DNA of 51,298 nucleotides, the filler included, from Dirinaria sp. TL-2023a (lineage: Eukaryota), in NCBI GenBank assembly GCA_051941275.1. It is 3 parts of 3 records of this genome, joined end to end, with 100 filler letters (N's around TTAATTAATTAA, not from the genome) between each part and the next. Parts side by side here need not be neighbours in the genome. Positions count along the whole stretch, not along the records: positions 17,151 to 34,192 come from JAVEBF010000457.1; 2 more parts are not named here. The stretch is one strand, 5' to 3'. A program made the position numbers and the translations under genes. Each line of letters begins with the position of its first letter. The stretch's first letter is position 1. Under the pieces are notes generated by a model. The model was not told the origin of the DNA. It saw only the letters and a list, made by a program, of their open reading frames with translations, and made no database searches. Shown here piece by piece: positions 10,477 through 24,217 of the stretch.

Positions 10477-12507
10477 ATGGACGAGAAATCATCAACATCC
10501 AATCCTGCAAATAATAGGACTGACCTTAGCCTGGATCCTTACGTGTCTCCCCGGCATGCATCTCCGTCTCCCCAAACTCCCACGCCCGCTGAGGATCCAG
10601 CAAAAGCCAAGCAACCCCGCAAGCGCAACAAACCGAGCCTTAGCTGCGAGACGTGTACCGTCAAGAAAAGTACGTGCAAACTGTTTCATCCTGTCTTCCT
10701 AATATCCGTGATGCGCACTTGCCGGCTCCGGCCGCCTTGGTTTCCGTTGCCTTGTGTACTTCCAGGCGTCGACGCTGACTCTCCATCCTGCATTAGCCAA
10801 GTGCGACCGTGGGCGGCCAAGGTGCCTTGCATGCTTAAAGCGGAGGTCCACATGTTCCTACTCGCAGCTTGCAGACCTGATCGAGGAGCAGCATAAAGCG
10901 CTAGGTATCGACAGTCCACGCAAGAAACTCAAGCAGCAAGTGCGGTTGCCGCCTCAGAGTCCTGGCCCTGGATCCGGGCTATCAAGTCGACAAGATGGCC
11001 ATGGCTCCATATCCAAGGAGCGCAGATTGTCTCGCTCCTCGACTGGGTCTTCTCCCATGCTGCTGTCCAACATGCCCTTCTCTCATCCGACTGCGTCAAA
11101 TGTTTTCAAAGCCGAACATCCCTTCAGCAACTACTGGACCCTTGCCGGAGGGTTGGCGGAGGTGGTGCAAGTACTACCCAGTAAAGATCAGTCAGATATC
11201 TTGATCGCGAAGTATTTCGATGTGGTAGATCCCGTGTATCCGATGATCGACCAAGCTTCGTTTCGACTGGACTATGACCATATCTGGTCACTGCCACCCC
11301 TGGAACGAAGACACGCTGATGCCTCACTGGTCGCTCTTGTCTTCGTCATGCTAGCTATGGGAACTCAATTTGTGGCTTCGCCTTCTGCGGCGCAAAAGGA
11401 GCAGACGGCCGAGTTCTACGTCTCGGCTTCTCACCAGGCCCTCCGCATGTTCTCCTATCTCAGCAGGCCGTCGCTTCGGTCCGTTCAGACCATGGTTCTC
11501 ATCACCTACTTCCTGATGAATGATAACCACGGGTCCGATGCTTACGCTTTTGCGGGGATCCTGATCCGTCAGGCATACGCCTTGGGTCTGAACCGGGATC
11601 CCTCGCTTGTGGTACCCATTGGCTCTCGCTACGAAATGCAGCAGCGTCGGAAGCTCTGGCAAGCCGTTTTCCTCCAAGACACGTTCTTTACCATCATCTT
11701 GAAATTGCCACCAACAGCCACCCACAATGACGTTCGTGTCGAGGATCTCGACGAGACAGACGAAGATCCCAACCTCAACGCTGGCGCAAACGATATTTCC
11801 TACATTCGATCGTTCTGGAATTTAGCCAACTTGTGCCAAACGGCCCTGTGTACACCCCGCGCGCTTTCACTGCCGGTATCAGCATCGGCAGCAGCTCGAT
11901 CGCGGCTCGTGGCTTCGTTTCACAGGCTGTATACTTCCTTCCCTCCGCCGTTCCGTACATTCAGCGAAGCGGCCATCTGTGAATTGGCGAAGCACAGTCA
12001 GCGGCTAGCACGGCAGACGTTATTCCTGACCAGCAACTATTATCACTGCCTCATGCTGGTCTACGTCGACGAGAGCGAGGATCTTTCACTCGATCTAAAG
12101 GGAACGCTAGATGCGGCTCACGAGGCTATCAACAGCTTCTTCCTCCTGCACACCTTATTTCAAGACGAGGCACGGGTTTGGTTCCATTTTCAACACAGGG
12201 CGTATTCGGAAGCGGTACGTTTCTCGTCGCCTCCTCTCTCCCACACTTTGATGCTACGCTATCATGCGAAAAAACCCCCTTTATCATCTTGATAGATTAA
12301 AAAAAGACTAACCGTATCATAATAAAAAAACTACAGGTCGTGATCGCGGAACTCATCAAGAACAAACCGGAGGATTTCTCCTCCATGGATCCCATGTACA
12401 TGCGGGCGAAGAACGACCTGCTCCGTATGATCGGCATCCTGCAGCTGACCAGCGAGGTGGACATCGTGAGCAGGACTCGTGTCGGCGTTTTGAGCAATTA
12501 TCTGTAG
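10477..12507 (+). CDS. Zn(II)2Cys6 fungal transcription factor with fungal-specific middle homology region (introns 10670-10796, 12215-12336)
   Basis: The spliced cluster reads SCETCTVKKT|KCDRGRPRCLACLKRRSTCSY (six Cys). Middle-region motifs AYALGLNRDP and RRKLWQAVFLQD. Last exon ends TAG at 12505-12507. Confidence 0.92.
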
Positions 12508-21378: not shown

Positions 21379-22733
21379 TTAGTAGTTCAAAAGCGCCGTC
21401 GCTCCTGGCTCGCTCGACACATAGCAGACCTCGTGTTGATCGGTAAAGCCATTGAATCTCGTGGCCGAGCATCGAGTATAGGCTCCCATGCCTTCGAAGA
21501 AGAGCCAGTCACCCACGTCAAGCAAACCGCGAAGGGTGCAATTCTCGGTAACGCGGTCAATACCATCGCATGAGGGGCCCCAGATTGAGTATTCGGTGGC
21601 GCAAGCGTTCGCATCACCGCCACGCTTCTGCAAGATACGTGCCGAAGGATGCTGATGGTCGAAGATTATGCTCGAGAAGTTGCCGTAGACGCCATCGTTG
21701 AGATAGAGCATATAGGAAATAATGCGGGTCACCGGGTCTTGGATCTGACGCCGGGCGATGACATTGCAGGCCAGAGTGAATGCGGAGGAGACATAATAGC
21801 GCCCAGGCTCACCGATAATGCGGACGCCAGGCGGGAAATTCTCGTCCAGGGCATTGCTAAGGACTGTGGACATATCCTCAAAGTTATCCCCAGAGAAGCC
21901 ACCACCTACGTCCAGAGTCTTCAGCTCATATCCGACCTCGGCGGCCTGATCGAAAACAAATCGAGAGTCCTGAACGGCTTTTGAGAACGATTGAGGATCA
22001 GAAGCGCCAGAGCCGACATGGAAGCTGACTCCCACCATGTTGAGATCGAGTTCCTTGGCTAGTTCCAGAAGGTCCCTCGTACAGTCAAGCGAAGCTCCGA
22101 ACTTCTGGCTAAGACGGCAAAGGCTAGATGAGTCATCGGTTAAGATGCGGAGGAAGAGCTCGGCACTAGGGTAGATTGCTCTGATTTTATACAGTTCGTC
22201 CGCATTGTCGAAGGTCATCTGCTTCACGTTGTTCTGAGCGGCATATCGTAGATGGGATTTCGTCTTGCAAGGTTGAGCATAGATGATCCGAGAAGGGTCG
22301 ATACCGAGTCTGAGGATTTGCTCGATTTCGGCCTTGGACGCGCAGTCGAAACCAGTGCCAAGCGCTGCAAGTAGACGGAGCACTTCCAGATCTGGGTTGC
22401 ATTTCACGGCTAAGCAATGCTGTAAGCCACACTGTCACCGACTAGGCCCTTCATGCGAGACTCACCATAGTGCGGTCTGACCCTTTTCAAATTCATCTTC
22501 CAGCGGAGATGCTGTCGATACACCTCGCCCATATCGGCCACGAAGAACGCATCTTCCTGGCCAGGTTCGCAGATATCTGTGTTCACTTGCTCTGCACGTT
22601 CTTTAAGAGTGCTTTGCACCAACTCCCTGCCAAGGACAGCACCATCATGAGGGCTGTGAGCAACAATCAATGGCTCTTTATTGATTGAGGTTGCTTCAAA
22701 TGCTATGGTAGTGGCTGTGACCGATGGTGCCAT
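21379..22733 (-). CDS. SPE1: Ornithine decarboxylase (intron 22410-22465)
   Basis: AFFVADMGEV, PHY|AVKCN (PLP lysine), GFDCAS, FHVGSG, LDVGGGF, EPGRYYV, WGPSCDGID and GAYT...FNGF. Confidence 0.97.
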
Positions 22734-22932
22734 GCCCTTGCGAAGAAGCAAGGTGATACTGATCTGGATGTTGTAGTTGATGTGCTGAAGGGAAGTGTCC
22801 TGTTAGGGGGGTTTATATGTGTCAGCCCCTGTTTTGGGTTGACGTGACCTGGGCGACTCTTCCTCGGGAGGAGGAAGAACCTCTAGGGACGTCCTATGCG
22901 GCAGCTGGGTGTTTGCGGATTCGGCGAGGGCG

Positions 22933-23117
22933 TTAAGGAGAATTCCGAAAAGAAAGGCTGCAGGCTCGGAAGTGGCGGTCAGCAGGGGGCGGTAAGTCGT
23001 TAAGGATATCTCGGTGAGGCCGTGTAGCGGGATCTTGAAGAGAGATCTGGGTCAAGGCGGCTGAGGCCGTGATGAAAAATGGTGAATCGAAATCTGGATG
23101 GAGGAAATTGAGGCCGT
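22933..23117 (-). promoter_or_regulatory. Candidate ACG-initiated uORF array in the ODC 5' leader (three uORFs, one per frame)
   Basis: CACGGCCTCA (minus strand) occurs at 23109-23118, 23062-23071 and 23015-23024. The uORFs are 23117-23052, 23070-22933 and 23023-23000. There is no AUG on the minus strand from 23160 to the ODC start. Confidence 0.6.
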
Positions 23118-24217
23118 GGCAGAAGAGGGATTATGCCACTAGGCACCAATTCACGGTGCTCTGAGGAACTGGATAGGCTCGGAGATAAAATCTAGGAAGC
23201 AAGCCATGTAAGCAAGTGATAGGAGATAAGGAGAGCATCCGAGCAATGTTCACTTACTTCTCGATACCAGAAAAAATTCACAAGGCAAAGTGATGAGGTC
23301 GGAGGATGCCAGATTAGGTATGTTGCTGTATTATGGAGTTGGGCGATTCTGAAAAGAGCTGGATGTGGATTAAACTTTGTGTGCGAAGCTAGTGTTTAGG
23401 AAAACGCGCGCGAATGACTCAAAGATCTCGGAAGTGACAATCTACCCCACATATGCCAGAACGGTGCTTCTAATCTCCTTACAAGGCCCTCGAATCCTCC
23501 ATACACGTCATGTACCAATGCACGAATTTGGATTCAAAGCATTTGCATCCACACAAAGCAGCAGAGACAGACAGAGAGAGTCGGATATCAGCGAGTCTTG
23601 AATCAAATGATTCTCAAGCTGACATGTATCATCGGCGAATTTAGTAACTCATCTCATCATCAGATGCAGAATCTACCTGATCCCGTCATCCAATGCAACC
23701 GAATGCCTGGGTCATCGCGGAATGCCTCACATAATACCGTGCCTAAGGTATGGAGATCTGCAAGCACGTCAAGTACATACATAGAGGTATTACCCATTGT
23801 GTGGCACGAATTCACAGGATCGACCGCGTTTATAATCCTCGCTTAGCATACTTCGAACTTCTGATGCGGTGTAACCCGAGGCAGCCTCGGTTTTGTCCGG
23901 GTTCTCGGTCCCACGTGGAAAAATGACACACTCTACCGGTCTACCCTACCTTACCTCGCCTACCTCTACCTTCGCCCACTGATCTTACATACACCTTACC
24001 TTACCGTACTAACCATGTCCCTCGGTCCCTTAGTCACTTTCACCATGTGGCTTCCATGTTTAATTTTGAGGCTGACATGATATCCTGCATATTGCTTCTA
24101 TTACTGGCAATTGGACAAGCAATGACATTCTCTAGTGCACACGATCAGCTATCCAAGCCAGGCAGATGGCGCTATTGTCACGGCTTCGGACATGCCCATC
24201 TTCTCGACTCAGAAGTG

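Follow-up and report, generated by a model that had tools for sequence, protein, structure and literature searches.

What does a short sequence, repeated three times at an exact interval, contribute to the leader of a gene for polyamine synthesis? The question is raised by the ornithine decarboxylase (ODC) gene of Dirinaria sp. TL-2023a, a lichen-associated fungus, which lies on the minus strand of the 51,298-nucleotide (nt) stretch of DNA analyzed here (the window), with its ATG at 22733. ODC acts as gatekeeper to polyamine synthesis, and for translation that senses a metabolite its leader in fungi is a textbook candidate. Upstream of this gene, the 10-mer CACGGCCTCA occurs in exactly three copies, all on the minus strand (starts at 23118, 23071 and 23024, spacing 47 + 47), each carrying an ACG codon. 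An initial annotation of the locus described this spacing correctly and read it as a triplication that places near-cognate start codons in all three frames, possibly a multi-layer polyamine sensor. Comparison with related loci points elsewhere. The triplication is mostly a by-product, and the main interest lies in a conserved two-frame architecture around the middle ACG. The leader is probably of the polyamine-responsive type known from ODC genes of the Pezizomycotina, plus one lineage-specific addition, with two overlapping near-cognate upstream open reading frames (uORFs) serving as a two-stage sensor of polyamine- and eIF5A-dependent stalling.

The identity of the gene, as given in the initial annotation, and the transcription of its leader are well supported. 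Exon 2 matches Pfam Orn_Arg_deC_N (1.8e-75) and Orn_DAP_Arg_deC (6.2e-25). The coding sequence (21379..22733, minus strand), delimited by Pfam and by an RNA joint, comprises exon 1 (22733-22466), an intron of 56 nt (22465-22410) and exon 2 (22409-21379), and the splice joint 22409/22466 is seen in RNA contigs of four runs. These contigs, assembled from four RNA-seq runs of one lichen-metagenome study on one sample, are 96-97% identical to the window. They cover 21201 to at least 23358 (23492 in one run), with both the coding-sequence intron and an intron in the 5′ untranslated region (5′UTR) removed, and have no gaps over 22466-23191, which includes the whole repeat region. The 5′UTR intron (23192..23257, minus strand, GTAAGT...TAG) has its joint in the contigs of three runs, where the 13 letters reported between the flanks correspond, with one mismatch, to the end of the exon. 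Because such splice joints mark the contigs as derived from RNA, the repeats sit in the mature mRNA leader. The first repeat unit is present without an indel in contigs that are ~97% identical to the window, with no leader difference among the 40 of 67 differences listed, and the duplication also exists in the second, slightly different isolate that the contigs represent.

Splicing of the 5′UTR intron takes out the sole two ATGs near the leader (23238 and 23207). The unspliced leader is free of ATG from 22733 to 23207, and the spliced leader runs for 652 nt without one, against 6.6 expected (P ~0.001), in agreement with the earlier statement that AUG is absent for more than 420 nt. The RNA contigs, whose cover ends at 23492, cannot place the transcription start site; should that site be farther upstream, the ATG at 23452 would begin a uORF of 18 codons. 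One contig (run X2) skips 51 nt at 23359-23409 with GC..AG ends, possibly a second 5′UTR intron or a strain deletion.

The comparison is based on 67 related ODC loci from metagenome contigs, fetched with the exon-2 protein and 41-82% identical to it. In several of them (e.g. L017 and L040), the protein matches to exon 1 and exon 2 adjoin directly, without an intron, and the whole leader is still present; these loci appear to be intron-less mRNA contigs. Searching the relatives by tblastn with the leader frames of the window reveals that two different frames are conserved: F1, the frame of the middle ACG (ACG-2), and F2, which is F1+1 and contains a conserved upstream coding region (uCC). In 44 of the 67 loci and in the window, a box, GCTGCCGCATA, is present and the F2 frame downstream of it terminates in [FYLT][KR]PP-TAA. 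The box is missing from the available sequence of 22 loci, most of them short contigs or distant ODCs. Among the 45 box loci, 35 carry ACGG 162-177 nt and PPP 84-99 nt upstream of the box, always at multiples of 3. The ACG is in frame with the uCC end in two (L040 and L056), ACGG and PPP are both missing from five (L023, L024, L025, L028 and L039), L049 has lost the ACG region, and two have too little upstream sequence to tell. The DNA alignment comprises 35 distinct leaders, the entropies and stop counts were taken from 21 non-redundant leaders, and the PPP spacing was measured in a set of 29. Across dozens of fungal ODC leaders the order is regular: ACG, PPP, a second start in the +1 frame 41 nt before PPP, box, hairpin and PP-stop.

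The upstream frame of this pair, uORF-A (22933..23070, minus strand, frame F1), was called uORF2 in the initial annotation. It is conserved from its ACG to a Pro-Pro-Pro motif (23070-22984), and its tail (22983-22933) is not. ACG-2 (23070, context CAUCACGGC) is the only deeply conserved ACG of the three, as CAnnACGGC; ACGGC with A at -3 occurs in every leader that retains ACGG, and the ACG is never another Thr codon. By tblastn, uORF-A has matches in ~40 loci, restricted to residues 20-50, with the pattern ITAS...L.LQ..S.R....[IL][LF]N[NDT][ILV]PPP. Column entropy over +33 to +87 after the ACG is 0.67/0.49/1.23 by F1 codon position, third positions varying most. In 28 of 29 leaders PPP follows the ACG at a distance of 75 or 78 nt, so that indels in this interval come in multiples of 3. 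The PPP itself (22984..22992, minus strand, CCG CCC CCT), a candidate site of eIF5A-dependent stalling, stands in F1 phase in 29 of the 35 distinct leaders, with CCA, CCC, CCG and CCT all used at each of the three positions. Beyond PPP, both sequence and length vary (the window reads ADRHFRACSLSFRNSP-stop, and L001 stops at ...ADRHF). This pattern suggests that uORF-A is translated from ACG-2 to PPP. Of the earlier proposal that uORF2 is conserved, the ACG start and the proline-containing frame as far as PPP therefore stand, and the tail with its Pro-stop does not; the conserved element is the internal PPP, not the terminal ...RNSP-stop that had been taken for a functional motif.

The second frame had been overlooked. 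The uCC (22803..23033, minus strand, frame F2) has a putative AUC start at 23033 in CAAG context and 76 sense codons, and ends ...GADTYKPP followed by UAA; the stop (22805-22803) lies 70 nt upstream of the ODC AUG. F2 is open from 23051 (82 codons from stop to stop) and is the frame of the first, lineage-specific uORF past its UGA; in relatives the uCC measures 81-179 codons from stop to stop. Its tblastn matches reach E-values down to 4e-27, with 1e-9 at ~39% identity over 82 residues, and share QLPHRT..VLPL.EEES......F[KR]PP-stop. Between the box and the stop, column entropies at the three F1 codon positions are 1.01/0.71/0.69, a pattern in F2 phase. In the variable stretch between PPP and box, F2 has no stop in any of the 21 leaders, against 34 stops in F1 and 16 in F0. 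The terminal CCN CCN TAA is invariant in all 30 aligned sequences. These codon-phase statistics suggest that F1 is read from ACG to PPP, and F2 from before the PPP-to-box stretch to the PP-stop, in keeping with translation of the uCC in F2. It is this frame, ending YKPP-stop, that fits the published uCC of the Pezizomycotina, and not uORF2, to which that role had been assigned.

How ribosomes would enter F2 is indicated by a near-cognate codon in that frame exactly 41 nt before PPP, found in 27 of 29 leaders (TTG 16, CTG 4, GTG 1, ATC 6) in a CAAG, CAAA or CACG context; it lies at 38 nt in L016 and is deleted in L049. In the window this codon is 37 nt downstream of ACG-2, and AUC in CAAG context is the same in the five closest loci. 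The F1 residues encoded at this site vary (V, I, T, S, D) as the F2 codon stays near-cognate, and the codon is lost in both lineages with fused frames (L040 and L056). Four codons ahead of PPP, Leu is encoded by CTC or CTT in all 19 cases; CTG, CTA or TTR at this position would give a stop in F2. Taken together, the conserved near-cognate in the fungal CAAR context, its loss in the fused lineages and the restriction to CTY favor independent initiation in F2. Many leaders also have an F2 stop between the ACG and the uCC start, at +16 to +18 (window 23054-23052, L001-L003) or +13 to +15 (L007/L017), and in those lineages F2 cannot be entered from farther upstream.

Against this background, the repeat itself can be resolved into a duplication and a coincidence. 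In the register of the initial annotation, units 1 and 2 are 29/47 identical, and outside the 10-mer they share 19/37 positions against a shuffle mean of 10.2 (p ~0.001). The best 47-nt window at lag 47 scores 31/47, compared with 26 as the best at other lags from 10 to 150, and none of 1000 shuffles reaches 31 (maximum 29). Tandem Repeats Finder reported no array; the repeat is too diverged for that program, and the lag statistics were used in its place. Units 1 and 2 are thus, as had been proposed, an old tandem duplication, which by sequence comparison is specific to this lineage. The third copy does not extend the array: outside the 10-mer it matches unit 1 at 8/37 and unit 2 at 6/37 positions, at or below chance (~10). 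At its site, L001 and L002 read CACGCCCCCA and L003 reads CACGCCCACA, so that the 10-mer there arose by two changes, both synonymous in F1. Judged by these alignments, the third copy (23015..23024, minus strand) is conserved coding sequence that matches the 10-mer by chance; it encodes the conserved F1 codons Thr-Arg-Pro-His ('ATRPH') and is not a duplication unit.

Unit 2 (23025..23071, minus strand) holds the first 15 codons of F1 and, in the context CATCACGGC, ACG-2 (23070-23068). Unit 1 (23072..23118, minus strand, 47 nt), with ACG-1 at 23117-23115, is the old tandem duplicate of this conserved start region and occupies the place where most relatives carry the inverted repeat CTTTGG...CCAAAG. 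The three frames translate as the initial annotation stated, each ending in Pro-stop, and the contexts (gccACGg, atcACGg and tacACGg for ACG-1, ACG-2 and ACG-3) have G at +4 throughout and a purine at -3 for ACG-1 and ACG-2, with T at -3 for ACG-3. uORF1 (23052..23117, minus strand) comprises ACG-1 and 20 sense codons in frame F2, ends PQPP then UGA and closes at that UGA (23054-23052), 16 nt past ACG-2. uORF3 (23000..23023, minus strand) runs from ACG-3 for 7 sense codons in the third frame and bears no sign of function; ACG-3 is not conserved beyond the closest relatives. Neither unit 1 nor uORF1 or uORF3 has a counterpart in the 34 other distinct leaders aligned. Unit 1 is probably either neutral or a leaky additional uORF of minor effect. 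Within the window there is no further exact copy of the 10-mer, the nearest sequences (one mismatch each) lying outside the ODC transcript at 12044 and 20133, and no partner sequence for it was found there.

Conservation in the leader also has an RNA component. The box CAGCTGCCGCATAGGAC (22891..22907, minus strand, 17 nt) reads QLPHRT in F2, and its TAG is an F1 stop; columns 10-21 show no variation across the 30 aligned sequences, even at synonymous sites. A variant with AAG for AGG turns that F1 stop from TAG into TAA, still a stop. No partner sequence for the box was found within the window. Farther downstream, a hairpin lies inside the uCC (22858..22878, minus strand), formed by UCUUCCUC, a 5-nt loop and GAGGAAGA, where F2 reads VLPPPEEES. 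Other loci form the stem from different sequences: CUGUUCC/GGAACAG in L016 and L054 (L016:1141-1159) and CUUCCC/GGGAAG in L042 and L039 (L042:3577-3602; L039:258-291). The pairing is kept as the peptide changes from LPL.EEE to CSVEEQ, which suggests that the hairpin is an RNA structure and not a matter of peptide alone. RNAalifold on the 3′ half of the uCC recovers the hairpin with a negligible covariation score (-0.01), in an input in which the variant stems (L016, L054) are misaligned, and single-sequence z-scores are weak (-0.2 to -2.2). The inverted repeat CTTTGG, 6-10 nt, CCAAAG(G), which in most relatives (L001-L057; e.g. L001:3322-3340) precedes the ACG by 12-15 nt, is read as 'TAFG..KG' in varying frames; its sequence is nearly constant and offers no covariation to judge.

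Several known systems share parts of this arrangement, as described in the portions of the cited sources that were consulted. ODC leaders of the Pezizomycotina contain a non-AUG uCC of ~100 codons with two adjacent prolines near its C-terminus, and the Neurospora crassa leader region holding it represses ODC in a partly polyamine-dependent manner (PMC2811004). The F2 frame agrees with that description in its position in an AUG-free ODC 5′ leader, its near-cognate codon in good context, its C-terminal conservation and its final two prolines, and this part of the leader is a member of the known Pezizomycotina ODC uCC family. Its length, 76 sense codons from the proposed AUC start (82 from stop to stop), stands beside the 'about 100' given there (PMC2811004). 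Unlike the single uCC of that account, it is accompanied by a second conserved, ACG-started PPP frame that overlaps the uCC start in the -1 frame, as well as, in this lineage, by a duplicated ACG unit. The uCC of AZIN1 likewise combines a weak near-cognate start with a proline-rich, eIF5A-dependent stall above a polyamine-pathway gene (PMC11550727, PMC9788402), the stall here being a candidate. Unlike AZIN1, however, the present leader has no PPW, its stalls would fall at the internal PPP of one frame and the terminal PP-stop of the other, and the starts here and in relatives are ACG and UUG/CUG/AUC, not AUU; according to the review, the fungal ODC uCC arose independently of that of AZIN1 (PMC2811004).

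The Saccharomyces cerevisiae HOL1 uORF (PS-stop; PMC11550727) resembles the present case as a fungal, polyamine-responsive type acting at termination after proline, but belongs to a different gene and is, in the part of the source consulted, a conventional uORF with no overlapping second frame. Antizyme +1 frameshifting offers a parallel in the polyamine pathway, with a second frame that overlaps the first at a +1 offset; its shift takes place at a conserved codon adjacent to a stop (UCC_UGA) (PMC5009743, consulted in part). In the ODC leaders, by contrast, no conserved shift site is present, and the second frame carries a conserved start of its own. Finally, the long leader of Pezizomycotina cpc-1 contains ACG, CUG and AUU codons that are deeply conserved and have a Kozak-like context, and codons of these three types initiate in N. 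crassa extracts; the cpc-1 near-cognates, though, extend the main protein and, as far as that source goes, do not start a proline-stall uORF (PMC5487733).

In the AZIN1 (PPW) and HOL1 (PS-stop) systems, high polyamines impair eIF5A, ribosomes stall, and the subunits queued behind them start more often at the weak codon (PMC11550727, PMC9788402, in the portions consulted). By analogy with these two cases, we infer a two-stage sensor for the Dirinaria leader. Most scanning ribosomes would leak past both weak starts and translate ODC. At high polyamine levels eIF5A would be impaired, the few ribosomes on uORF-A would stall at PPP, and those on the uCC would stall at PP-stop. Scanning subunits would then queue behind these stalls, initiation at the weak codons would increase, and fewer subunits would reach the ODC AUG.

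A number of points weigh against this two-stage sensor. The case for translation of both frames is drawn from substitution patterns, and the 21-35 leaders that supply them are not independent lineages, several being near-identical. With the ribosomal P-site at the stall, the distances are ~44 nt to the F2 start and ~81 nt to the ACG, neither of them a multiple of ~30; a simple 30-nt queue spacing from stall to starts was dropped because these distances do not fit it. The uCC start in the window and its closest relatives (6/29) is AUC, a weak near-cognate, so that entry into F2 is least certain in exactly this lineage. The window also lacks the inverted repeat CTTTGG...CCAAAG. Given the hairpin and the synonymous-site invariance of the box, conservation acts partly at the RNA level, and some of the conservation of the uCC peptide may be secondary. 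Lastly, unit 1 preserves the 10-mer exactly despite ~49% divergence over its remainder; by a rough estimate, a run of at least 10 has a probability of 0.02, and ACG-1 may therefore be more than neutral. As an observation apart, the window, with unit 1 in place of the inverted repeat, also has a different small hairpin (GCACCG..CGGUGC) at ~23158-23141.

Three other explanations were weighed. That the triplication is itself a multi-layer sensor, with three ACGs, one per frame, starting uORFs that each stall at Pro-stop, would account for three exact 10-mers at an exact 47-nt spacing, for the purine at -3 and G at +4 of ACG-1 and ACG-2, for the Pro-stop at the end of all three frames and for a unit-1 10-mer that is better preserved than the rest of its unit. 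It is nonetheless very unlikely: a period of 47, not being a multiple of 3, yields three frames automatically, units 1 and 3 are without counterpart in the 34 other leaders, and unit 3 is not homologous outside a 10-mer whose ACG has T at -3. Even the Pro-stop of uORF2 is not conserved in the closest relatives (L001: ...ADRHF). The proposal of a three-frame sensor thus finds no comparative support, and the frames follow from the period.

The two conserved frames could instead be one upstream coding region with a programmed +1 frameshift, in which translation starts at ACG-2, pauses at PPP, slips into the uCC frame and ends at KPP-stop, in an antizyme-like and polyamine-stimulated manner. In 35 loci the uCC frame does stand at +1 to that of the ACG, F1 continues past PPP only as a short, unconserved tail, the PPP of the window contains CCC_C, and in L040 and L056 (the latter without PPP) the ACG frame runs directly into the uCC end over 89 codons. 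If such a polyamine/eIF5A-dependent shift took place in most Pezizomycotina, these two loci would be natural 'pre-shifted' forms, and the leader would hold a second antizyme-like recoding event, directly on the ODC mRNA. However, there is no conserved shift site, since the Pro codons and the codon after them vary (CCA CCT CCT in L003, CCA CCA CCT in L008) and no stop or conserved slow codon is present. F2 also has its own conserved near-cognate in strong context upstream of PPP, lost only in the fused lineages, and is held open upstream of PPP by CTY at the Leu codon in 19 of 19 cases. A term search of the first 300,000 of the 449,034 characters of a 2016 review of frameshifting (PMC5009743) returned no upstream conserved coding region and no ODC mRNA, and none of 12 among its 13 matching passages describes such a case. 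A frameshift is very unlikely, on a par with the three-ACG sensor. Still harder to credit is conservation of the ACG-to-PPP region as RNA only, as an untranslated structure or factor-binding site that leaves the uCC as the sole uORF. The leader clearly contains elements of the required kind (the hairpin, the invariant box and, ahead of the ACG, the inverted repeat), and the CAA preceding the F2 start does not vary even at a synonymous position. Yet the variation between ACG and PPP has a three-base periodicity in F1 phase, the Pro codons vary synonymously while PPP stays, indels occur only in multiples of 3, and the ACG is never replaced by another Thr codon.

The overlapping two-frame sensor thus remains the preferred account, and its novelty depends on earlier work. 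The literature searched contained no description of two overlapping frames or of a frameshift in fungal ODC leaders, nor of the 41-nt spacing, the box or the hairpin, the original 2008 uCC paper (Ivanov, Loughran and Atkins) being outside that search; these features, like the overlap of the ACG/PPP frame with the uCC, could already be part of that paper. If the ACG/PPP frame has not already been described, it provides a testable two-stage queuing model in which a stall in one frame feeds initiation in the other. For the duplicated ACG unit, a variant specific to this lineage, any function is putative.

Natural variants of the architecture amount to ready-made mutants: the duplicated ACG in the window, the fused frames of L040 and L056, and the lineages without the ACG/PPP part. 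In the last group (L023, L024, L025, L028 and L039), the box, hairpin and PP-stop are retained, and the uCC is open for 78-108 codons upstream of the box (31 in L028). One further locus (L010:3321-3509) has the ACG, PPP and box, and its uCC frame stops 17 codons past the box (...DATK-stop), possibly as a decayed copy or through an assembly error. In the mRNA-like contigs L040 (92-427) and L056 (55-387), the ACG frame continues into the uCC end as a single 89-codon frame; the internal near-cognate is lost in both and PPP is also missing from L056, and their relative L048 has the two-frame layout with GTG as the second start.

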